IMG/VR virus record: IMGVR_UViG_3300020463_000001
Location: 96,001 to 160,000 of that record
Direction: 5' to 3' (one strand)
Source: a virus
Taxonomy: Duplodnaviria; Caudoviricetes
Length of the DNA stretch: 64,000 nucleotides
Under the pieces are notes generated by a model. The model searched no databases. It was not told the origin of the DNA and saw only the letters and a list, made by a program, of their open reading frames with translations. Position 1 is the stretch's first letter; the number at the start of each line of letters is the position of its first letter. Below, piece after piece: positions 4,402 through 59,177 of this stretch. The position numbers and the translations under genes were made by a program.

Positions 4402-5313
4402 ATGGCAATCTCCGACGATCAAAAAATTGACTATCTGTGGAAGAAGCTTGGTTATGGTGCTTCAAAGACAGATATCAATTCAATCAAAGGTGCGACAAAC
4501 GAGAGCATTCCTAGTCCTTTATTGATAAGAGGGGATAAATTGTGGTCAGATTCCGCACAGATTCCTTCTGTAATGCCTACATCATCTAATACCTATGTTG
4601 GTGTCTATTTGGATTCTCAGTCCAGTACAGTGGAATGTACGAAGGATTTGACCGCTTCTGCGAATAGGACATGGATTACAGGACTGACAGATTGGATACC
4701 GCCTGAGTTCGGATCCACATATCAGGTCAAAGTATACATCGAATCTTCTGGAATGTCAACCCCCCAATCTACAGGAGATCAAATATTTGCGGCTGGATCC
4801 GGAAATAATGACGAATGGTTTTTTGACTATCAAAGTGGTATTCTTCATTTTATTGGAACAAATCTTCCGAGCGGAATTAATGGAAATGTAGTTTATATAT
4901 CTGGTGCGAGATATGTCGGAGACTTTGGAGTTGGCGGCGGATCGATTGGAGCAAACATACAGTCTCTCGTAAATAATATACAGAATGTTCAGAACGCACT
5001 AAATAACTTCGAATATTCCGGACACACCCAGTCAGAAATAGATACTCTGGTTGCCGGCGGAGAACCTATAGGTATTGTATATGACGATACGACTGGTAAG
5101 TTTATTCCATCGACTATATCAGCATCAGGAGGAGGCGGAGGGAGTAGTAGTGTTCCATTCTTGCCTCTTTTACTAAATAACGGAACAGAAGAACAAGTTC
5201 CTCTATTGACCACATTCGATGGCCAAGAGTTGATCAGTGGTTTGTTGAGGTTTACATTAACAGACGGGAACAGAGACGATATTGATTTGTTAATATCCGG
5301 ATCCACTCCGTAA
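4402..5313 (+). CDS. Putative virion structural protein
   Basis: 303 aa, GAGG RBS, co-oriented in the structural operon; beta-rich N-terminal part, coiled segment, Gly/Ser linker. Confidence 0.6.
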   Translation: MAISDDQKIDYLWKKLGYGASKTDINSIKGATNESIPSPLLIRGDKLWSDSAQIPSVMPTSSNTYVGVYLDSQSSTVECTKDLTASANRTWITGLTDWIPPEFGSTYQVKVYIESSGMSTPQSTGDQIFAAGSGNNDEWFFDYQSGILHFIGTNLPSGINGNVVYISGARYVGDFGVGGGSIGANIQSLVNNIQNVQNALNNFEYSGHTQSEIDTLVAGGEPIGIVYDDTTGKFIPSTISASGGGGGSSSVPFLPLLLNNGTEEQVPLLTTFDGQELISGLLRFTLTDGNRDDIDLLISGSTP

Positions 5314-5329
5314 TAGAATGAAAAATAAT

Positions 5330-5337
5330 TATAAATA
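5330..5337 (+). promoter_or_regulatory. T4-type late promoter
   Basis: TATAAATA in the intergenic gap 52 bp before the 1998-aa ORF; variant ACTAAATA at 5351-5358. Confidence 0.85.
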
Positions 5338-5389
5338 CTAAGACAATCACACTAAATATAGTATTAATTTAAGCGCAAAGGAGCTCCAT

Positions 5390-8300
5390 ATGGGCGTCAA
5401 TCTTGAACGAAATAATGTCATACATCTTGACGGATATCATTGGGATAAAGAAAAAGATGACGATAAACCACTTCTTAGTCAGCTAACAGACGATCTATTG
5501 GCCAACGGATTTACAGACGTTGGGCCAGAAGTAATTAAACTCACAATCTCTGACAGCGAGTTGACTTCGTTTATCGATAAATTTATCGTATACCACTATG
5601 ATTCTGATCCCTCTACGGTTGGAGGTGGAGCGTTTGGTAATGCATTTGAAGACTCCAAAAAAATACCAAACTATACTGTGCCTGCAGTTAACGAACATGA
5701 TCATAATAAATTTGTTTACGACTTACCTTTAGGAAATGGAGAAGATCCAACAGGCCAAAGATTCAAATACATTCACCAAGCATATGCCGATGCAGAACGA
5801 TGGAATAAAAGGTGGTCAGAGTTCCCTACATTAGAACAAATTTCGGGATCAACATCCGCTGCATCTTACCTTGGCCCAAACTCCGAATTGTTTGCGTATT
5901 TAAATCCACACCCATCGAATATGATGACTAATGAAACTAGTCAAACCCTACCTTCTGGTGTTATAAATCATCAGAGTCGAGTTAAGAAAATTATTTTTAA
6001 TATCGGTGCAGATAAGTACGAGAGAGTATTTAATCAACTGGATACTGTTGGTGAAGAGGGTTCCGGTGTCTTCTTGGGATCAAATCGAGGACAAGAAGCA
6101 ATTAGTATTTCTAGTCAAACTGGATCTCTTACTGGAGATAATGACTCTAGTGGAAGTATAGATGATAATTTTCCTCTCGCAAAAGAAATATATCCCGCTG
6201 CAGCAAGATTTACTGAAGTTGCTCAATTTAGAGTTGGACAGAGAGTTGTTGGTGAACAATCAGGAGCAATCGGTGTTGTAACAGAATTTATAGATGCAAA
6301 TGGAGATCCCTGTGTAGTGGGTAAAAACATATTTGAAAAGAATATGATGTATGACCCAGAGTTACTTGCAAATGTCAGAGGCCAAACTGCAACACATATT
6401 TCTGATGGAACTAAAAGCGTTCTAGAGTTTTCTACAGATTTTTCTATCGCAGATTTTGATGAAACTGTAGATCAAGTTTATACAGTAACTACAACCGATT
6501 CTTCTGATGTCGTAACAAAATTAACCTCGACAGGTCTTACGCCAAATTATTCTACAAATGGAACTGGAATTACATTTTTAGATTTTGGTGGACAACCAGT
6601 ATCAGTAGGAAATGAGTTGACTGTAACTGTCTCTTATGGCCCGAAAATGTTAAAAAGCAGACTCCCAAGTGCTGGGATGGTTTATGGTGGAAACTATGTT
6701 CCAGAATACGACTTGCCCGATGACGAAGATTCTACTCGCGGAAAAATAATCACAAGAGTTAATGTTGAAAAGAAACCATATGGAAATCTACAAAGAAAAA
6801 CTGTCTTTATAGACGAATGGGTAGAACAGACAGAGGGAAGACAACTTGTAGTAGAAGCATTGTCTAAAGATTTCTTCCCCGGCGAAAAAATCTTTTCAGA
6901 AAACCCTTTTGGAGATGACGACAATTCTACTGCAGAACTGACTGGATGGTCAGAACCAATAGATGTGACTGTAAACTATGAGAACAAATCGGTGTCAAAT
7001 ACCTTTACTATGGCTGGCACTTTTAATGCTCAAGATCATGATATAAGTATAGTAGTTAGACCTTATAGATTGGTTGGTTCCGGAACATCATCTAAAAGAG
7101 AAGCTTCGGCCGCGGATCAATTTATTCTTGAAGGAGCAACTTTGACTTCTAATAGTGGCCAAAGACTAAAAAATGGAGGGTTTTCTGCGACTCAAATTCA
7201 GTATCCTTCGGGGAGTTATGATTATTGGACTCAATCTGGACCTGGCCAGGCAAATGCAACTGAAAGTGGGCCCAGCCAACAGTCGTCATTGCGTAATGCT
7301 CAGATTATAGTAACTGTATCGGCCAAAGAACCAGATTATACTACTCTTTCTAGAATTCCTCCACAATCTACCGGATTTTCTAATTCCGGTGTTCAAACTC
7401 TTGGAGAAAAGGGAGATAAGACAGGAGATTTTGGAGCTCTTACTTTTTCAAAGTTAAGTAGATTTAGTGCTCAAACCGAATTAACAAATGTCGCCGATAA
7501 AAACACTAATGATATAGTACACAGTTCAAGTATTGGTGCCGGTTCAGCAGAGTCTTTATCCTTTAGAATAGAATTTGAAAGAGAGAAAAGTCTTCTTAAC
7601 AAAATAGAACCTGTAACTGATCAGTTTGATATCAATAATCAAGTGGTTGTGAATCTTGTAAATGATTCTTTGGGAACTTCTCATCAAGTCGGAGATAGTT
7701 TTACTGTTAGTTCTTGGGACAATGATGATGTAAGAAACGCTGCAACTACTCAATATTTTCCGGCATTAGTTGTCGGATGGATCAAATCAAAATCCTCCGG
7801 CATGCCTGCCGGTAAGCAACGGGTAACTTTTGACGAACAAAACGAGTATGATGGTAGAGGTGCATCTCCTACAGAAAGAATGAGTTACGTAACTCTTGAT
7901 ATGGTACAACCCGAAGAGTCTAATGAATTTATTGTAAATTCTGGAGAAGGTAAGACATTTCTAAAGAAAGATCCGCAAGGTGGGGTAATTTCTGGAACTG
8001 GGTATTCTACTGGATATGTAGGAATCGGAACAGTTGCTAAACTTGTTTACGAAAATGAATATAACAAAGTTAAGAGATGTTTGATCAATTCTGCAAGAGG
8101 TGTTAAGTTTTCTCCGGAAGATGTTACTACTGGTCTGTCTACTTCCACCGAAGCAAGTTTAGTTCAGTATAAAGAAGAAGAACTAGTTCAAGGAAATAAA
8201 CATCATTTCTGGATTGCGTTAGATAAATCAGAAACATTCTTTACTTCAGATCAAATAGAACCAAAGACTCTTCTGGGATCTATGACTTTATCTATGAAAA

Positions 8301-50746: not shown

Positions 50747-50775
50747 TTGACAAATCCAACCTCATTTGTTACAAT
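50747..50775 (+). promoter_or_regulatory. Sigma70 early promoter of gp55
   Basis: TTGACA-N17-TACAAT with TGn extension. Confidence 0.88.
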
Positions 50776-50800
50776 GTATGCAACTTTTAAAGAGGATATA

Positions 50801-51352
50801 ATGGCCGAAAAAAAGAAAAACGCACACTATGTAGATAACAAAAAACTCCTTGCTGCGATGATAGAATTTCGTAATTCTGTTATTGAGGCGAAAGAGAATG
50901 ATAAACCAAGGCCCAGAATTCCTAATTACATTGGAGAATGTATTATGAAGATTTCTGAGCATTTGTCGTATCGTCCTAATTTTATTAACTACACATACAA
51001 AGATGAAATGATTTCCGATGGGATAGAGAATTGTCTCCTATACATAGATAACTTCAATCCAGAGAAATCTAAAAATCCCTTCGCATATTTTACTCAGATA
51101 ATCTACTATGCCTTTATAAGAAGAATGCAGAAAGAGAAGAAACAAACTTATGTTAAGTATAAGTCTCTTGAACGTCATGTCTTGGAAGATGATATACTTG
51201 AGGCCGGTGGAGTGACTAAGAAAAGTTATCTAGAGTTTATGCAGAATAATATGTCTGGATTTATCGAAGATTTTGAGAAATCACAGAAAGTCAAAAAGAC
51301 CAGAGCAAAAGCAAAGAAAAAGGAACAGAATGAAAATAGCCCTCTTGACTGA
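50801..51352 (+). CDS. gp55: Late sigma factor; start corrected from 50747
   Basis: HYVDNKKLL; NYIGECIMKI..HLSYRPNFINYTYKDEMISDGIENC; NPFAYFTQI.YYAF.RR..KEKKQ; GAGGA RBS. Confidence 0.97.
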   Translation: MAEKKKNAHYVDNKKLLAAMIEFRNSVIEAKENDKPRPRIPNYIGECIMKISEHLSYRPNFINYTYKDEMISDGIENCLLYIDNFNPEKSKNPFAYFTQIIYYAFIRRMQKEKKQTYVKYKSLERHVLEDDILEAGGVTKKSYLEFMQNNMSGFIEDFEKSQKVKKTRAKAKKKEQNENSPLD

Positions 51353-52376
51353 TACTCATTTTGGAGCTAGGGGTGATTCCCTAGTCTTCTTTGATTACAT
51401 GATGGAGTTCTATGACAATGTGTTTTTTCCATACCTGTCAGAGAACAATATTACAACTATGATTCATCTTGGAGATGTTGTGGATAGACGAAAGTTTATC
51501 AACTTCAATATTCTTCATGGCATGAATAGTCGGTTTATGAAACGATTACAAGACGATAAGATAGAATCTCATATCATTATTGGGAACCATGATACTTACT
51601 TTAAGAATACGAATGATATCAATTCTATGAATGAACTGATAGACTTCAACCACGAGTACTCTCCTAAAGTCTATTCGGATCCGGTTACTTTGAATTTTGA
51701 CGGCAGAGATATTTGTTTTATGCCGTGGATCAACTCTGGTAACTACACCGATTGTAGATCTCACATTAAAGATACCAAAGCAAAAACTTTATTCGGACAT
51801 CTTGAAATTGCCGGATTTGAAATGAGTCGCGGAATCAAGTGCGAAGATGGATTTGATATTCATATGTTTAAAAAGTTTGATTTAGTTTGCTCTGGACATT
51901 TCCATCATAAATCAAACAACGGAAATATTCATTATCTTGGAAGCCCATACGAAACAACTTGGATAGATTATAATGATCCAAGAGGCTTTCACATATATGA
52001 TACGGATACAAATGAAATTGAATTTATTCAGAACCCATATCGTATGTTTCATAAGATATATTATGATGAAGAAAACCTTGACCGAATAAATTACTCGACA
52101 TACAATCAGAAATATGTTAAGGTGATTGTCAAAAACAAAACAAAGCAACATTTATTGGATAATCTAATAGATGAATTATACAACAATGATGTCGTTGATG
52201 TATCTGTAGTTGACGATACATACGAGTTTGAAGGGATGGATGAGACACAATCTATAGAAGATACTATGTCTCTTCTCTCTGGATACATAGATGATTATAA
52301 TTTAGATTTGGATAAGAATCGGCTTAAAGGTTTGATTCAAGATTTATACATTACTGCGTTAAGAGAGCCTGCCTAG
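51330..52376 (+). CDS. gp47: Recombination endonuclease subunit (Mre11-like); start corrected from 51273
   Basis: DTHFG, HLGD..D, GNHD, GHLE, SGHFH phosphoesterase motifs. Confidence 0.97.
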   Translation: MKIALLTDTHFGARGDSLVFFDYMMEFYDNVFFPYLSENNITTMIHLGDVVDRRKFINFNILHGMNSRFMKRLQDDKIESHIIIGNHDTYFKNTNDINSMNELIDFNHEYSPKVYSDPVTLNFDGRDICFMPWINSGNYTDCRSHIKDTKAKTLFGHLEIAGFEMSRGIKCEDGFDIHMFKKFDLVCSGHFHHKSNNGNIHYLGSPYETTWIDYNDPRGFHIYDTDTNEIEFIQNPYRMFHKIYYDEENLDRINYSTYNQKYVKVIVKNKTKQHLLDNLIDELYNNDVVDVSVVDDTYEFEGMDETQSIEDTMSLLSGYIDDYNLDLDKNRLKGLIQDLYITALREPA

Positions 52377-54094
52377 TGTTAGAATTTCAAAAAATACGGT
52401 GGAAGAATTTTCTTTCCACTGGTGATAACTTTACTGAAATATTATTTGACAAATCTCCAACCACATTAATCCTTGGTGCAAATGGAGCCGGAAAATCTAC
52501 GGTTCTGGATGCACTCACCTTTGGATTGTTTGGTAAACCCTTTCGAAAGATAAACAAACCTCAGTTGGCGAACTCTGTCAATGAGAAAGATTGTCTTATT
52601 GAGATTGAGTTCAAGATAGGAAAGACTCAGTATAAGATTCGTAGAGGTATCAAGCCTGGCATCTTTGAGATATATCATAATAAAAAGATGATCAATCAGG
52701 ATTCCAAGATAAAAGACTATCAAAAATATCTAGAAGATAATATTCTCAAACTTAATTTTAAGTCTTTTACTCAAACAGTGATCTTGGGATCTGCTACTTT
52801 TGTTCCGTTCATGCAACTTTCGGCAAAAGATCGAAGAGACATCATAGAAGATCTATTAGACATTAAGATATTCTCTTCTATGAATGAGATACTGAAATCC
52901 AGATTAATAGACCATAAAGAAAATTTAAGAGAAACCGGCAATGAAAGAAATAATATAGACAATCAGATCCACTTACAAGAATCTAGCATAGAAGAAATCA
53001 AGAAGGATAGAAAGAAACTTATACAAACTTCTAAGAAAAAGATAGAAGAGTATCAATTAAAGATTGATGAAAATGATTCTTGTATAGAAAAACTTACCGC
53101 AAAGATTGGTATGTTAAATGATACACTTGTTGAATTAAAACCAGTACAAAAGAAAATATCCAAGATGGATAGTATTAGTGCTGGACTGACTTCTAAGATT
53201 AAGTCTCTTAAAGAAGATCAAGAGTTCTTTCACGATATTGATAATTGTCCTACCTGTAAACAAGATGTTGATGCATCTCATAAAGAAATGATGATTGCAG
53301 AAAGGAAAGATAAACAAAAAGAAATAGAACAGGCCATAGAAGATTTTAAGAGTGAATATGAAGTTATTAATGCAAGGATGGATAAATTATTAAATACTCA
53401 GAATAAAGTATCTAATCTTACTGCAGATATATCCGAAAAAACTTCTCACAATAAAGGCCTCAAAAGTTCTATAAAGGATTACGAAAGAGAAGTAGAAGAA
53501 CTTGAATCGACAGATACATCTACCACTAAGATGCGAAAAGATCTCAAGAAGTTTACTGATCAGAAAAATAGGATAGAAAGGATAAGAGAAGAACTTTTGG
53601 AAGAAAGAGAATACTTGAATGTTGCTTCTACACTTCTTAAGGATGGTGGTATTAAGACTTCTATCATCAAATATTATCTTCCCATTATGAATGGTCTGAT
53701 AAACAAGTATCTTCATCAAATGGATTTCTATGTTAACTTTACAATGGATGAAAACTTCTCAGAGAATATTAAGTCTCGCAATAGAGAAAACTTTTCTTAC
53801 AGCTCATTCTCCGAAGGTGAAAAGATGCGAATAGACCTGGCTCTACTCTTCACTTGGAGAGAAGTCGCGAAGATGAAGAATAGTGTTAATACAAATCTTT
53901 TGATACTGGATGAAGTATTTGATAGTTCTCTAGATAGTAATGGAACAGATGAGTTCTTAAAACTTCTCAATCAACTTGGCGGAAATAATGTATTTGTTAT
54001 TTCACACAAAGGAGAGATCCTCTACGATAAATTTAGAAGTATCATCAAGTTTGATAAAATCAAAAACTTCAGTAAAATAGTGGAAGAGAAGTAA
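52376..54094 (+). CDS. gp46: Recombination ATPase subunit (Rad50-like)
   Basis: Walker A GANGAGKS, zinc hook CPTC, signature FSEGE, Walker B LILDEVFD, ISH. Confidence 0.97.
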   Translation: MLEFQKIRWKNFLSTGDNFTEILFDKSPTTLILGANGAGKSTVLDALTFGLFGKPFRKINKPQLANSVNEKDCLIEIEFKIGKTQYKIRRGIKPGIFEIYHNKKMINQDSKIKDYQKYLEDNILKLNFKSFTQTVILGSATFVPFMQLSAKDRRDIIEDLLDIKIFSSMNEILKSRLIDHKENLRETGNERNNIDNQIHLQESSIEEIKKDRKKLIQTSKKKIEEYQLKIDENDSCIEKLTAKIGMLNDTLVELKPVQKKISKMDSISAGLTSKIKSLKEDQEFFHDIDNCPTCKQDVDASHKEMMIAERKDKQKEIEQAIEDFKSEYEVINARMDKLLNTQNKVSNLTADISEKTSHNKGLKSSIKDYEREVEELESTDTSTTKMRKDLKKFTDQKNRIERIREELLEEREYLNVASTLLKDGGIKTSIIKYYLPIMNGLINKYLHQMDFYVNFTMDENFSENIKSRNRENFSYSSFSEGEKMRIDLALLFTWREVAKMKNSVNTNLLILDEVFDSSLDSNGTDEFLKLLNQLGGNNVFVISHKGEILYDKFRSIIKFDKIKNFSKIVEEK

Positions 54095-54282
54095 TGGATG
54101 GCGTGGATCTAGAAATCAAAAGGAAGGATTCTACTCTGTTGATAAAAGTCAACAAAGAAGAGAAGAAAAAGTTTATTGCTCTGTGTGAGTTGAATGATTC
54201 CAGTGCATCCAGAGAGATTCGCAGATTTATGAAAGAATATATTAATAATTTTTCGGTGGAAATAAAACTTGACAACGGCTAG
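54094..54282 (+). CDS. Ribbon-helix-helix DNA-binding protein (putative)
   Basis: 62 aa: beta strand LLIKV, helix EEKKKFIALC, helix SASREIRRFMKEYI; coupled to the gp46 stop (TAATG). Confidence 0.7.
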   Translation: MDGVDLEIKRKDSTLLIKVNKEEKKKFIALCELNDSSASREIRRFMKEYINNFSVEIKLDNG

Positions 54283-54297
54283 AAAATTTGAGACAAT
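54269..54297 (+). promoter_or_regulatory. Possible sigma70 promoter of the MTase cassette
   Basis: TTGACA-N17-GACAAT with TGn; the -10 lacks the first T, so it is weak. Confidence 0.4.
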
Positions 54298-54304
54298 GGT
54301 TCCC

Positions 54305-55492
54305 ATGTATCAACCTTATACTCTAAAGGATGTGTTTGCAGCATCCGCACAGAATAAATTTAACGTCATATCTACATTCGCTGGCGGTGGTGGATCTAGT
54401 ACTGGTTATCGTCTTGCTGGCGGTAATGTATTGTGTGTAAATGAATTTGTCGAAGAGGCACAAAATACCTACGCAGAAAACTATCCAAACACTCCTATAC
54501 TACCTAACGATATTAAGGAGTTGAGTGGATCAGACTTTTTAGATATTGTCGGATTGGGTGTGGGCGAGTTAGATATTCTTGATGGTTCGCCACCGTGTTC
54601 TGCATTTTCAGTTGCAGGAAAACTATCTCACAATGTTAAAAAGGAAGAGATGGTTGATTTGTTTGGAGAGACAACTATAGTCAATGTGTCTGGAAAACAT
54701 TCAGATGGTTGGGGTCAGACTAAGAATTATTCTGACGGAAAGATGGTAGAGAATATCGAAGATCTTTTCTTTGAGTTCCTTAGAGTTGCAAATGATATCA
54801 AACCCAAAGTGATTGTTGCGGAGAATGTTAAAGGATTGACCATAGGCGAGGCGAAACAATACTATAATAAAATTCTCAACGAGTTCGAAAAGATAGGGTA
54901 TGATGTTTCATCTCAAGTCATGGACGCAAGATATTATGGTGTTTCTCAGACAAGAACTAGGGTAATCTTTATCGGCATTAGACACGATATTACTGAGAAG
55001 GCTGGTTTTAACTTTATGACTGTTGGAAATATTTTTCCGCAACCGTCCAGAAAAATAATTCCCTTGATGGATGCCCTAGTAGATTTAGAATACGATCAAG
55101 AAGAAGTTGATTATCTCACAGAGAAGTTTACTAAAACTGCGTATTGGTTACAGACCGGAAGTAAGATGGAAGACGATCCAAAGAAAGTTTTGACTGGAAT
55201 GGATTATCATCCGAAAGGACATCACTTTAACCTCAAAAGAGTGTCCAGATACGCACCAGCACCCACGCTAACGGCGATGGGGAGTAATGACACTACAGCA
55301 GGTGCATTCCACTGGGCCGAACCTAGAAAACTCACTCTGGGGGAATTAAAGAGGATTCAGAGTTTACCTGATGACTTCAAGTTGACCGGAAAATGGAACC
55401 AGAAATCAGAAAGAATCGGTAGAATGGTTCCGCCAAAAATGATGCAGTCAATTGCTGCGTCTATCTATGAAAATGTATTGGAGAAAATATGA
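54305..55492 (+). CDS. C5-cytosine DNA methyltransferase-family enzyme, probably a carboxymethyltransferase (CmoX-like); start uncertain (54296 or 54305)
   Basis: Motif I FAGGGG, IV GSPPC, VI ENV, VIII QTRTRV, IX RKLT..ELKRIQS.PDDF; motif X is GRMVPP instead of GNAVPP. Confidence 0.9.
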   Translation: MYQPYTLKDVFAASAQNKFNVISTFAGGGGSSTGYRLAGGNVLCVNEFVEEAQNTYAENYPNTPILPNDIKELSGSDFLDIVGLGVGELDILDGSPPCSAFSVAGKLSHNVKKEEMVDLFGETTIVNVSGKHSDGWGQTKNYSDGKMVENIEDLFFEFLRVANDIKPKVIVAENVKGLTIGEAKQYYNKILNEFEKIGYDVSSQVMDARYYGVSQTRTRVIFIGIRHDITEKAGFNFMTVGNIFPQPSRKIIPLMDALVDLEYDQEEVDYLTEKFTKTAYWLQTGSKMEDDPKKVLTGMDYHPKGHHFNLKRVSRYAPAPTLTAMGSNDTTAGAFHWAEPRKLTLGELKRIQSLPDDFKLTGKWNQKSERIGRMVPPKMMQSIAASIYENVLEKI

Positions 55493-56037
55493 GCAACGTA
55501 AGCCAATTGATCGCTAAACATAATGGTGATGATCCTTTTAACGATGAAGCCCAAAGAAACGCGCTTAAAAGTTTCCTTCGCACAGACCTTGATTTTGTCA
55601 GATTTATTTTAGACTATGCAGAAATAAAAAGTGACGCTAAGCCATGTGATATTATAGATGACCCTTTAGGAGAAAAAAGAGTAGACTTGGGAATAATAGA
55701 TAAAAATTCTAATGTTCGATGTTTAGTTGAAGTTGATTACTATTTCAAATGGGATCCATTTTGGCCAAAAAACTATAAAAATGCTCACGCATTAGAGAGA
55801 AAAATAAAATATTGGAGGGGCAAAAATATCCCATATATTGGTTGTACTTTTAGTAAAAATCTCGATAAGATGATAGTAATTACAGATGAACTTATAACAG
55901 AGTATATGCACACCAAACGAAAAAAGTGGGTAGAACTTCATGGCGAGTTGGTAGAAGATGTTTTCATTAGTATACCCCCCTTCAGAGCGTTTAAGTTTGG
56001 AGATTGGCAAGACGACGAATTACGGAGAGTTTCATAA
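55489..56037 (+). CDS. Putative PD-(D/E)xK-like nuclease
   Basis: DDPLG..RVDLGII...LVEVD...W...H..ERK pattern; ATGA and TAATG overlaps with both neighbours. Confidence 0.45.
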   Translation: MSNVSQLIAKHNGDDPFNDEAQRNALKSFLRTDLDFVRFILDYAEIKSDAKPCDIIDDPLGEKRVDLGIIDKNSNVRCLVEVDYYFKWDPFWPKNYKNAHALERKIKYWRGKNIPYIGCTFSKNLDKMIVITDELITEYMHTKRKKWVELHGELVEDVFISIPPFRAFKFGDWQDDELRRVS

Positions 56038-56723
56038 TGGCAGACTTTACTTTTGCACACAGAAAAGAGGGCTTCGATGCTCACATAGATGCATCTATTC
56101 GTCACTACTCATCACTTCATGATGATATAGTTGCAATGTCTAGATACTTTGTAGAGAATGATACCAGTGTAGTTGATATTGGTTGCTCTACTGGAAAAAC
56201 TCTAGGGGCAATGATTGACCAGAATAAGGAATCGGCTCCTAATGCACAGTATCATGGAGTTGAAAACGCAGATGGATTTGCGGAAGATATGAAATCCAGA
56301 GAAGAAGAATATGTTGATTCTAATCTCAGTTTACATTTTCAAGATGTAAGAAACTTTGTATTTCCTGTTGATTCTTCATTCATAACGAGCATATTTACTT
56401 TACAGTTTATTCCAAAACGAGATCGACAATCTATTCTGGATTCGATATATGATTCTCTTCTTCCCGGCGGAGCATTCGTTTTTTCTGAGAAGACTTATGC
56501 CTCATCTCCAGAACTAGAACAGATACTCACATTCCTCTTTTATGACCATAAAAGAAAAGAGTTTTCCTGTGAAGATATTATGGACAAAGAATATACTTTG
56601 AGATCAATGCTGAAACCAATGCACTGGGACGATTTACTATCCATGATGTACGAGGCAGGATTCCAAGAAGTTCAACCTTTTTGGAGAAATCATCTATTCG
56701 TAGGAGCAATCGCTATAAAATAG
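56037..56723 (+). CDS. cmoA: Carboxy-SAM synthase CmoA homolog; start corrected from 56004
   Basis: FDAHI..SI.HY, VVDIGCSTG, FTLQF, GGAFVFSEK, K...LRSML.P, AGF...FW motifs match the CmoA family. Confidence 0.85.
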   Translation: MADFTFAHRKEGFDAHIDASIRHYSSLHDDIVAMSRYFVENDTSVVDIGCSTGKTLGAMIDQNKESAPNAQYHGVENADGFAEDMKSREEEYVDSNLSLHFQDVRNFVFPVDSSFITSIFTLQFIPKRDRQSILDSIYDSLLPGGAFVFSEKTYASSPELEQILTFLFYDHKRKEFSCEDIMDKEYTLRSMLKPMHWDDLLSMMYEAGFQEVQPFWRNHLFVGAIAIK

Positions 56724-56768: not shown

Positions 56769-56797
56769 TTGACATTCGCCAACTAGCCCCTTAGAAT
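56769..56797 (+). promoter_or_regulatory. Sigma70 early promoter
   Basis: TTGACA-N17-TAGAAT. Confidence 0.85.
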
Positions 56798-56826
56798 AGC
56801 TGTATAGTTTGTTGATAGAGAACCAA

Positions 56827-59145
56827 ATGACCGAAGTTACCGTCTCCAAGAATTCCAAGAGTCTTCTTGCTCGTCTACTTGCGGAAGAAAACATTCGCGT
56901 CGAACACTCTTCAGAAGTTGTGACAGCGAGTTTCAATGTAGAGACTCGACTATTACTTCTTCCTATCTGGAAAGATGAATCATATACTCCTGATATATAT
57001 GACCTTTTTGTTGGCCATGAAGTTGCTCACGCATTATACACTCCAAGTGATCTAGAAGTTCTAGAAGAAGCCATGAAGCGATCCAACCATGCGTTTCTTA
57101 ACGTAGTGGAAGATGCGCGAATTGAGAAGTTAATGAAGCGAAAGTTTCAAGGTCTTCAGGCTCCTTTCAAGAATGCGTATCAAGATCTTTACGAGAGAGA
57201 CTTTTTCAGTCTTAAGGGTCAACCTATTCAATCTCGCAATTTCATTGACCGCATCAATCTCTTCTTTAAGTTGCGATATGCGCTGAACCTATACGCACCA
57301 TCCATCTTCAATTCAGAAGAAATGACTTTCATTCGCAGGATCGATGATGCAGAAACTTATGTGGAAGTTGCGGATATCTGTGAAGATCTTTACAAGTATC
57401 TGAAAGAGAAGCAAGAAGAACAACAGCAACAGGCACAAATGTCTCCCAGTTCTTCTAATTCTGAAGGAGAACCTCAAGAAGGCGAGACTTATGAAATGCC
57501 TTCTGATGATGAAGAAGAAGAATCTGAGGGGTCAACAGAGGCTTCTGGATCCGGAGAAGAAGAATCAGAAGAAGGGCCCAAGGAATCTTCTGGATCATCT
57601 TCTGAAGAACAACCAGAAGAGTCTGGAGAAGAGACCGAAGAACAATCTACCGCATCATCTTCTGAAGAAAAGAAAAATCCTCAAGATGGAAATCAGTCAA
57701 GCGTCTTTACCGATGAGTTCACTTCAGAGACTAGTGAGTCTCTAGAAGAAAATCTCAAGGAGATGGTTAATGAAAATACTCGCGAAAGTGTTTACATCAA
57801 TCTTCACAGTAACTATGAACTAGAGAAGTATGTCCATGACTATACAGAAGTTCAGGCAGACTTTGAACGCGAGGTATCTGCAGTAGAAGTACTTCATCGT
57901 CAACAATATAGTCACGGTGATGCACCAGAGTTAAATTTTCCTTCTCTGAAAGAATTGATCTCAGAAAACTCAAAGACCATTTCTTATCTTGTAAAAGAAT
58001 TCGAAATGAAGAAAGCTGCTCGCGCACAGGCATTGAGTTCAGAATCCAAGACTGGTGCGATCAACACTTCCAAGTTGTGGAGTTATCAAGTCAACGAAGA
58101 TATTTTCCTTCGTAAGACTAACACTCCAGACGGCAAGAATCATGGTATGGTTATGGTAGTAGACTGGAGTGGATCTATGGGATCTACTGTTCTTAACACT
58201 GTCAAACAGACCATCGTTCTCGCAACATTTTGTAAGAGAGTTGGAATTCCTTTTGAGGTCTACAACTTTACCAGTGTTAATAAGAAGGCTGTTCCGGAAC
58301 CAAGTATCTTGCCATTATCGGAAGGAGACATTCTTCTAAGGAGTATCGCATTGCGAAATACGTTATCCAGTAGAATGAGTGGCAAGGTCTTTAATCAGGC
58401 CTGTCAAAACTATCTGAACATTGCTGCGATAGTAGGGAATGCGATAGGGGCATACTACATTCCTTATCGATTGATGCATACTGCAGTCTCTGAGGATCAG
58501 TTTGGTGCCACTCCTACTAATCAGGCACTGGTTCTTCTAGACAGAGTGATTCCTAAGTTCCGCAAAGAAAATTCTTTAGAGAAGGTTAACTTAGTTCTAT
58601 TGACTGATGGAGAACCTACCGATCATCTTACTTATAAGAAAATAGATGATGACTATCCAACGGAACGAACAACTAGATATGCTTCGAACATTTATGTGCG
58701 AGATACATCTACTAATGAGACTTATCGCATGGTTGCTGAGAATGAGTATAGTGGAATTGACGGTTTCGACTCTTCTAAGTTTCTTATCAAGATCTTGCGA
58801 GAGAAGCATGGGATCAATTCTATTGGATTCTATCTCTTGAATTCTCATGGGAGAACTGAGATTAAACGAGTCATTCAAAGATTTGTTAACTACAATCTAC
58901 AACCATACATGGAAGAGTATCGCACTCTGCGAAAAGAATTCAACAAGAATAACTTCTTTGTTGCGACTAACTCAGGACACAATGAGTACTATATCATCAA
59001 TGCGAAGGTAGATCCTAAGACTGATGAGTTGGATGTAAATTCATCTATGTCAAAGGCTGCAATCGCAAAAAGCTTCATGAGTCACAATAGATCTAAGGTT
59101 GTAAACCGACAATTATTAAATAAATTTGTCGATTTAGTAAAATAG
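56827..59145 (+). CDS. Metallopeptidase-like/vWA protein (CobT-like partner of a MoxR ATPase); start corrected from 56809
   Basis: HEVAH (HExxH) plus NVVEDARIE; acidic S/E linker; MIDAS DWSGSM and LTDGEP. Confidence 0.85.
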   Translation: MTEVTVSKNSKSLLARLLAEENIRVEHSSEVVTASFNVETRLLLLPIWKDESYTPDIYDLFVGHEVAHALYTPSDLEVLEEAMKRSNHAFLNVVEDARIEKLMKRKFQGLQAPFKNAYQDLYERDFFSLKGQPIQSRNFIDRINLFFKLRYALNLYAPSIFNSEEMTFIRRIDDAETYVEVADICEDLYKYLKEKQEEQQQQAQMSPSSSNSEGEPQEGETYEMPSDDEEEESEGSTEASGSGEEESEEGPKESSGSSSEEQPEESGEETEEQSTASSSEEKKNPQDGNQSSVFTDEFTSETSESLEENLKEMVNENTRESVYINLHSNYELEKYVHDYTEVQADFEREVSAVEVLHRQQYSHGDAPELNFPSLKELISENSKTISYLVKEFEMKKAARAQALSSESKTGAINTSKLWSYQVNEDIFLRKTNTPDGKNHGMVMVVDWSGSMGSTVLNTVKQTIVLATFCKRVGIPFEVYNFTSVNKKAVPEPSILPLSEGDILLRSIALRNTLSSRMSGKVFNQACQNYLNIAAIVGNAIGAYYIPYRLMHTAVSEDQFGATPTNQALVLLDRVIPKFRKENSLEKVNLVLLTDGEPTDHLTYKKIDDDYPTERTTRYASNIYVRDTSTNETYRMVAENEYSGIDGFDSSKFLIKILREKHGINSIGFYLLNSHGRTEIKRVIQRFVNYNLQPYMEEYRTLRKEFNKNNFFVATNSGHNEYYIINAKVDPKTDELDVNSSMSKAAIAKSFMSHNRSKVVNRQLLNKFVDLVK

Positions 59146-59148
59146 CCC

Positions 59149-59177
59149 TTGACAAAGAGCTAAGAATAGATTAGCAT
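59149..59177 (+). promoter_or_regulatory. Sigma70 early promoter
   Basis: TTGACA-N17-TAGCAT. Confidence 0.75.

Follow-up and report, generated by a model that had tools for sequence, protein, structure and literature searches.

The closest described counterpart of the locus analysed here is the CmoA-CmoY-CmoX system of Synechococcus phage S-B43, in which CmoA makes carboxy-S-adenosylmethionine (carboxy-SAM, or Cx-SAM) (Yang et al., Nat Commun 2025, PMC12783734). SpCmoX (PDB 8YF3), which accepts Cx-SAM as its sole cofactor, moves the carboxymethyl group to C5 of cytosine in GC motifs, and its R350, replacing Asn304 of M.HhaI, contacts the cofactor carboxylate; CmoY of S-B43 ligates glycine to the carboxyl group, and only ~75% of the GC sites in S-B43 are modified (PMC12783734). 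The stretch that we analysed (the window, 64,000 nucleotides) covers positions 96001-160000 of the IMG/VR virus record IMGVR_UViG_3300020463_000001 and corresponds to the part of a T4-like myovirus genome devoted to replication and recombination, in which homologues of cmoX and cmoA enclose an open reading frame (ORF) for a nuclease-like protein of 182 amino acids (aa), ORF182. The neighbourhood comparison covered 80 annotated CmoX loci from IMG/VR together with contigs from assemblies. The whole is on balance probably best explained as a CmoX/CmoA cassette in a variable slot, joined by a mobile PD-(D/E)xK gene that stands outside the chemistry.

The window phage resembles S-B43 in having the same co-transcribed enzyme pair in a T4-like myovirus, but the order cmoA-cmoY-cmoX of S-B43 is replaced by cmoX followed by cmoA, and the window phage further differs in the nuclease-like gene between the enzymes, in a gene for a ribbon-helix-helix (RHH)-like protein upstream of them and in the absence of psbA. 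S-B43 has CmoY and thus makes 5-glycyl-cxmC, whereas 5-carboxymethylcytosine (5cxmC) would be expected from the window phage, which has no CmoY. Compared with SpCmoX, the window CmoX carries two loop insertions (~17 and 6 aa) after motif IV. In Synechococcus phage S-CRM01, which is likewise T4-like, the region of the replication genes also holds a CmoX/CmoA pair without a ligase, annotated only as methyltransferases; there, however, the order is opposite, no gene lies between the two, the RHH gene is missing and the pair is located between gp62 and regA, whereas the window pair follows gp46.

For the gene in the middle, the nearest parallels are the free-standing homing endonuclease genes of T4-like phages, such as seg and mob of T4 and that of F-CphI in cyanophage S-PM2 (PMC6083498; review PMC10055350). 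Like these, ORF182 and its relatives are small nuclease genes found sporadically between conserved genes, at recombination boundaries and at several sites, but the fold is PD-(D/E)xK and not GIY-YIG, HNH or EndoVII-like, a separate DNA-binding domain is not recognisable, and cleavage and homing are putative. A PD-(D/E)xK homing endonuclease, I-Ssp6803I (PDB 2OST), belongs to the same fold class, is similarly small and matches ORF182 structurally over 111 residues (Z 6.2), although it is encoded in a group I intron, whereas ORF182 stands without one (no Rfam match) and has no detectable sequence similarity to it. Type II restriction-modification (R-M) systems likewise place a nuclease-fold gene, of the same common fold, beside a DNA-modifying enzyme, but ORF182 is dispensable in sister phages and has relatives without a nearby methyltransferase (MTase). 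A further likeness, that of a nuclease gene in a phage with a DNA-modifying enzyme, is offered by DenA and DenB of T4, nucleases that spare the modified phage DNA.

The predicted carboxymethylation pair

The cassette consists of four ORFs, all on the plus strand, and the features needed here are as follows.

54094-54282, plus strand: 62-aa RHH-like small protein (Pfam RHH_9 below cut-off; phrog_19878), coupled to gp46
54296-55492, plus strand: cmoX, DNA cytosine-C5 carboxymethyltransferase orthologue, 398 aa (ATG start; alternative TTG at 54269), with the SPPC catalytic Cys, ENV, QTRTR and ERIGRMVPP
55480-55483, plus strand: GGAG Shine-Dalgarno within the 3′ end of cmoX, separated by 5 nt from the ATG of ORF182, read from the sequence
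55489-56037, plus strand: ORF182, 182-aa PD-(D/E)xK-fold nuclease-like protein (AlphaFold2 (AF2) model and structural matches), an optional insert
56024-56027, plus strand: GGAG Shine-Dalgarno for cmoA, 9 nt ahead of its ATG, within the codons for the conserved ELRRVS tail of ORF182
56037-56723, plus strand: cmoA, carboxy-SAM synthase homologue, 228 aa (homology to assayed SpCmoA, PDB, TIGR00740 and phrog_4752)

The layout is as the initial annotation had described it. The MTase stop TGA (55490-55492) overlaps the ORF182 ATG at 55489 (ATGA), the ORF182 stop TAA (56035-56037) overlaps the cmoA ATG at 56037 (TAATG), and the gp46 stop overlaps the ATG of the 62-aa ORF in the same way (TAATG).

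The MTase matches Pfam DNA_methylase (E 4.7e-57) and, over its full length, SpCmoX (phmmer against PDB 8YF3, E 3.4e-144), to which it is ~70% identical. Its motif X, ERIGRMVPP, matches ERVGRMVPP of 8YF3 position by position in the alignment, the Arg corresponding to R350 by chain count, and the GR aligns with the GN of GNAVP in M.HaeIII; the proposal that an Arg occupies the canonical Asn position of motif X is thus borne out by alignment to both enzymes. The segment DGSPPCSAFS aligns with S95-C98 of 8YF3, the catalytic Cys being C98, and all four residues of SpCmoX that contact the adenine and ribose of Cx-SAM (F25, E47, F48 and D69) are identical in the window MTase, which is encoded by the sole C5-MTase gene in the complete genome. 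The last gene of the cassette lies 545 bp downstream of cmoX in the same translationally coupled operon and had been rightly called a CmoA homologue: its product is 52% identical to assayed SpCmoA over the full length (E 2e-79), finds only CmoA/YecO structures in the PDB (1IM8, 4GEK and 4IWN) and matches phrog_4752 (E 4e-57). Its score against TIGR00740 (E 8e-27, 94.4 bits) is below the curated equivalog cut-off of 193.3, in a model built on bacterial tRNA-pathway enzymes.

Because of this close homology to the assayed SpCmoX and SpCmoA, we are highly confident in predicting that the phage carboxymethylates cytosine. CmoA would convert SAM and prephenate to carboxy-SAM, and CmoX would place the carboxymethyl group onto C5 of cytosine, probably in a GC context as SpCmoX does, with the motif-X Arg holding the cofactor carboxylate. 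The initial annotation had reached the same view, which the aligned R350 and the conservation of every named cofactor contact strongly support, and the report of a phage CmoA/CmoX pair making 5-carboxymethylcytosine that it mentioned does exist (Yang et al. 2025, PMC12783734); the pair here is a further member of this already published kind.

It could still be argued that the MTase is an ordinary 5-methylcytosine enzyme and that the CmoA homologue has a different task, for instance depleting SAM or modifying tRNA, since the TIGR00740 score falls under the curated cut-off and the chemistry of the window phage is predicted from homology. We regard this as very improbable, given the ~70% identity to an enzyme that uses Cx-SAM only, with R350 among the contacts kept, the position of cmoA in the same operon, and a genome without any match to a ligase of the CmoY, glutamine-synthetase (GS) or RimK type. 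MTases that occupy the same slot without cmoA also lack the Arg. In the sister phages L113 (5211-6482) and L116, a 92%-identical RHH gene is followed in the same slot by a different C5-MTase of 423 aa (34% identity), with no cmoA, and in motif X of this enzyme, SRIGLMVAP, a Leu takes the place of the Asn of ordinary enzymes and the Arg of CmoX. As a natural control, the motif-X Arg co-varies with the presence of cmoA.

ORF182 represents a new family with a nuclease fold

ORF182 has nothing significant in Pfam, NCBIfam, PHROGs or PADLOC, the profile of its family retrieved no PDB sequence, and tblastn of three family members against 50,697 cultured phage records gave no match. An exhaustive search yielded ~41 representative clusters at 50% identity, all of them metagenomic and none in cultured phages. 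The AF2 model, computed with 32 family members in the alignment, reached a predicted local distance difference test score (pLDDT) of 89 and a predicted template modelling score (pTM) of 0.85. Its structural matches include D212 (Z 8.4), Hjc (7.5), NhoI (6.5), RecU (6.2) and I-Ssp6803I (6.2), as well as the SPARDA nuclease domain (Foldseek probability 1.0), DpnI and PvuII, and extend to DUF4365, DUF3883 and restriction endonuclease clusters. The top matches are almost all PD-(D/E)xK nucleases, and the modelled structure contains the alpha-beta-beta-beta-alpha-beta core. Judged from this model, ORF182 is the founder of a new, so far unannotated PD-(D/E)xK-fold family, and the label "nuclease-like" in the initial annotation was right at the level of the fold, with catalysis inferred.

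Residues invariant in the family are D19 in helix 1, D66 at the start of strand 2, and R104 and K105 in the helix after strand 3. In strand 3 (E81-x-D83), E81 is Glu or Asp family-wide, and the canonical Lys position is taken by D83 (D/E/T/G in the family). The acidic core therefore looks canonical in the model while the usual Lys position is acidic; K105 may substitute for the Lys in a putative active site. The idea that ORF182 might be a chorismate mutase supplying prephenate was ruled out by the nuclease fold. The GC content of ORF182 (34.6% vs 38.2% for the genome) is inside the range of the neighbouring genes, and compositional oddity was dropped as an argument for this reason.

A base-precise optional insert between cmoX and cmoA

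The survey of cmoX-cmoA neighbourhoods that the initial annotation had suggested shows that the middle gene is real, optional and scattered in its presence. Most of the CmoX loci compared have (CmoY)-CmoX-CmoA directly abutting. Three sisters of the window phage (L075, L021 and L022), with 97%-identical CmoX protein and 88-95% identity in the flanking DNA, lack exactly window positions 55489-56034; their cmoX ends in ...GAGAAAATTTAA, and cmoA follows immediately with a TTG start. The same base-precise polymorphism recurs in a second pair, L031 (filled) and L039 (empty), whose flanks are 92-95% identical and in which the ORF182 allele of L031 is only 47% identical to that of the window. On the CmoX tree, the presence of ORF182 requires 5 changes for 6 carrier rows, and every carrier has a close sister without the gene. 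The view of ORF182 as a fixed partner of the modification genes is not supported: cmoX and cmoA abut in sisters with 97%-identical CmoX and in a second lineage likewise, and relatives of ORF182 occur at sites free of cmo genes.

The divergence of ORF182 is decoupled from that of its neighbours. Between the window and L007, CmoX is 48% and ORF182 53% identical, whereas between the window and L031 the values are 78% and 47%. In L010, which is filled like the window, ORF182 DNA is 97.3% identical to that of the window vs 93.2-93.3% for the flanking cmoX and cmoA (Fisher p 1.3e-5), and a patch of 68% identity spans the last 60 nt of cmoX, at the border of the insert. By this comparison ORF182 is less diverged, and would be "younger", than its flanks. 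Assembled contigs gave no joint at the site; in one run a contig ends at 55487, with no coverage across ORF182, which is no more than suggestive of an empty allele.

The insert appears fitted to the expression of its neighbours. The GGAG at the cmoX 3′ end serves the cmoA start in the empty-site sisters, and at filled sites ORF182 would take it over and bring a new GGAG and ATG for cmoA; as ORF182 reuses one ribosome-binding site and supplies another, the operon would be left undisturbed. Although the two proteins share only 47% identity, the window and L031 do not differ at all in the final 23 nt of ORF182 and the ATG, and the ELRRVS tail encoded there is found only in family members located between cmoX and cmoA. 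Rfam searches of four loci were empty and gave no intron; a group I intron or a split gene at ORF182 sites was rejected on this ground and because what looked like a split N6/N4 MTase around an ORF182 relative in L014 proved to be two complete, different enzymes.

Relatives of ORF182 at other sites

Three further sites of family members in T4-like phages are the gap between gp44 and gp62, the position after cobS and that before gp43; the contigs concerned, of 55-74 kb (32-41% complete), hold no C5-MTase. Others are found near modification genes. One follows cmoA in L098, and a distant copy (P0016/L112) is again placed between an Arg-type CmoX and cmoA. In L014 (1843-4595), just after gp43, a relative with 37% identity stands between two different complete DNA MTases, one of 430 aa with motif I before FTSPPY and one of 216 aa of the beta class (N6/N4), with a 103-aa coiled-coil ORF alongside. 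As a side observation, a different lineage of marine phages encodes a protein with a Pfam match to DruA (Druantia) at L106:1726-2892; its gene precedes an ORF182-family member and gp43 by two genes.

What ORF182 could be

With moderate confidence, we favour the reading of ORF182 as a free-standing, homing-endonuclease-like mobile nuclease gene, because it is present or absent to the base in sister phages, scattered on the CmoX tree, decoupled from its flanks in divergence and found at other intergenic sites. It would play no part in the carboxymethylation chemistry. The insertion falls exactly between the stop of cmoX and the start of cmoA; during mixed infection, ORF182 would cut the empty cmoX/cmoA junction of a phage without it and would then be copied in by recombinational repair. 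Several points weigh against this reading. Support at key nodes of the ORF182 family trees is modest, and the pattern of filled and empty sites could have arisen from an accessory gene that was lost repeatedly. Asp83 occupies the canonical Lys position of (D/E)xK, and catalytic competence is inferred; structural Z values of 6-8 are in the range where a fold, and not necessarily a function, is common to two proteins. For this phage, 5cxmC is predicted from homology and nuclease activity from the fold, and the target site of ORF182 is putative. The family is moreover enriched beside DNA-modification genes, between cmoX and cmoA in at least six lineages including that of P0016/L112, and in L098 and L014. 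This neighbourhood and the adapted tail suggest a long-standing association, and a functional link would explain them as well.

The same recurrence by modification genes is what an R-M-like or exclusion module would show, in which ORF182 cuts host or co-infecting phage DNA without 5cxmC and spares its own DNA, the coupling behind cmoX ensuring that protection comes first. The initial annotation had proposed such a system with 5cxmC as the self mark, and part of its basis is sound: the ATGA coupling to cmoX is real, the fold is common to type II and modification-directed enzymes (NhoI, DpnI and PvuII), and the tail adapted to the cmoA start points to a long residence in the operon. We nevertheless hold it as a minority reading, and an unlikely one, since sisters with near-identical flanks do without ORF182 in two lineages, relatives sit at the gp44/gp62, cobS and gp43 sites without a C5-MTase on their 55-74 kb contigs, and ORF182 appears younger than the flanking DNA and out of step with CmoX in its divergence. 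The consistent pairing of nuclease and MTase expected of type II R-M is not seen in the ORF182 family, as far as these contigs (32-41% complete) show, and a 2-bp GC target that is ~75% modified in S-B43 would, if kept here, make a poor self mark for a lethal nuclease. Rather less probable in our view is that ORF182 is a passenger, an ordinary non-mobile cargo gene of the hyperplastic regions of T4-like phages that is often lost, encoding a nuclease for junction resolution or repair, or else a DNA-binding protein without catalytic activity. Such an origin would fit the best fold matches (D212 and the resolvases Hjc and RecU), the replaced Lys and the many cargo combinations hosted by the slot between gp46 and the 778-aa gene downstream, but it fits poorly with base-precise presence and absence at the same junction in two lineages with alleles only 47% identical, and with a divergence below that of the flanks; random cargo turnover would not predict an embedding so site-specific and adapted. 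A combination of the first two ideas, to which we likewise give only a small chance, is a selfish and at the same time modification-aware nuclease that cuts the cmoX/cmoA junction, or GC-containing DNA, only when it lacks 5cxmC; the cassette would then be a phage-borne exclusion system with 5cxmC as its self mark, whose nuclease destroys or converts unmarked co-infecting phages and host DNA.

Ligases and the end product

The initial annotation was correct that no ATP-dependent ligase stands beside the pair. A CmoY-type ligase was not found in the complete genome, either with the PF00733 Asn-synthase PP-loop profile or with the CmoY of a sister phage as query, and GS-type and RimK-type ligases gave no match there either. 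As the complete genome is without a ligase of these three types, the mark probably stays plain 5cxmC, which would serve as anti-restriction camouflage. The lack of a ligase, which had been counted as part of what makes the locus unusual, is on the other hand common, because the published CmoX contigs have 2,251 ligases for 5,615 contigs, i.e. under half (PMC12783734), S-CRM01 has a cmoA-cmoX pair without a ligase, and sisters of the same lineage occur with and without one. Within this lineage, the window phage and L075 have no gene between cmoA and the 778-aa gene; in this slot L021, L022 and L115 have a ~510-aa unknown protein and CmoY, and L010 and L114 have other unknown ORFs. Inside the lineage, the ligase and ORF182 come and go independently of each other, and a role of ORF182 as a stand-in for the ligase was ruled out by the co-occurrence of ORF182 and CmoY in L003/L004.

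Proteins of 461-521 aa without a Pfam match are repeatedly encoded beside a CmoY-like ligase in CmoX cassettes (L021:5842-7407, L115:7083-8609 and L004:162-1547; also L047, L092 and L074) and are candidates for a further hypermodification step. In the cmoX-ORF182-cmoA cassette of L112, a glutamine-synthetase-like protein (Gln-synt_N and Gln-synt_C) is encoded directly after cmoA (5256-6272) and may act on 5cxmC as an amide ligase of another class. L015 (3169-4554), the phage with an ORF182 relative between gp44 and gp62, encodes after regA a 461-aa protein in which a RimK-type ATP-grasp part is fused to a Zn_protease domain.

The RHH-like gene and the variable slot

The 62-aa ORF had been described as RHH-like and regulatory. 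The ORF is present, and its RHH identity is weakly supported, since its match to Pfam RHH_9 (E 0.005, 17.1 bits) is under the cut-off of 23.4 bits and its AF2 model, an extended stretch followed by two helices, has a low pLDDT of 51; it matches phrog_19878, of unknown function, at E 3.9e-10. Homologues with 74-100% identity invariably have gp46 on one side and a C5-MTase, of whichever type, on the other, and the ORF is absent from the other CmoX lineages compared. The gene accompanies the MTase slot in a lineage-specific way, and the notion that its product is a small DNA-binding regulator is a guess. The slot itself, running from gp46 through the RHH gene and the MTase to the 778-aa gene, has at least six haplotypes in one lineage, comprising an ordinary-type MTase alone, CmoX-CmoA, and forms with or without the nuclease and with or without a ligase and unknown partners.

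Genomic and environmental context

The features that surround the cassette in the window are as follows.

50747-51352: gp55-like ORF, named by its position upstream of gp47/gp46 and by a weak Sigma70_r2 match on its positional counterpart in L007; no Pfam match in the window
51273-52376: gp47-like phosphoesterase (Pfam Metallophos)
52376-54094, plus strand: gp46-like SbcC/Rad50 (SMC) ATPase (Pfam AAA_23/SMC_N), the conserved upstream anchor of the variable slot, same in sister loci
56769-56797, plus strand: candidate sigma-70-like promoter TTGACA-N17-TAGAAT (consensus scan, 11/12 matches; consensus match only), preceding the 778-aa gene and then the CobS-like ATPase gene
56809-59145: 778-aa protein, no Pfam match, with a long acidic Ser/Glu-rich stretch

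The candidate promoter at 56769-56797 would start the next unit and mark the downstream end of the cassette. A second near-consensus sigma-70-type promoter (TTGACA-N17-TAGCAT) lies at 59149-59177, in the short gap before the CobS-like gene, and a weaker match at 54269-54297 ends at the cmoX start codon. The 778-aa gene adjoins the gene for a CobS-like AAA_5 ATPase in all sister loci, and because of this conservation a role of its product as a CobT-like partner is possible.

The source record is 200,733 bp long, has direct terminal repeats and is rated complete, and the runs that contain the phage are marine/seawater metagenomes. The gp46 protein has at most ~50% identity to those of cultured phages, cyanophages and Methylophilales phages alike, and psbA was not found in the complete 200.7-kb genome; for these two reasons the phage is placed in an uncultured marine T4-like lineage. 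An identity as a cyanophage is unsupported on the same grounds, and the host is probably other than a typical picocyanobacterium.

Implications for T4-like phages

Since the chemistry of CmoX and CmoA has already been published, the cassette is a ligase-less example of it in an uncultured marine T4-like phage without psbA, and what is new lies in the undescribed PD-(D/E)xK family, the variable slot and the natural control formed by the motif-X Arg and cmoA. The homing endonucleases known from T4-like phages include the GIY-YIG (Seg), HNH (Mob) and EndoVII-like (F-CphI) types; if ORF182 is a homing endonuclease, its family would add a PD-(D/E)xK type to them. A nuclease both selfish and modification-aware, if such it proved to be, would be the first enzyme of a restriction-like kind to depend on a carboxymethyl mark, and if ORF182 discriminates carboxymethylated DNA it could be a useful reagent. 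Beyond the single gene, the variable slot between gp46 and the 778-aa gene amounts to a natural experiment in which the assembly of DNA-hypermodification pathways by phages can be followed.

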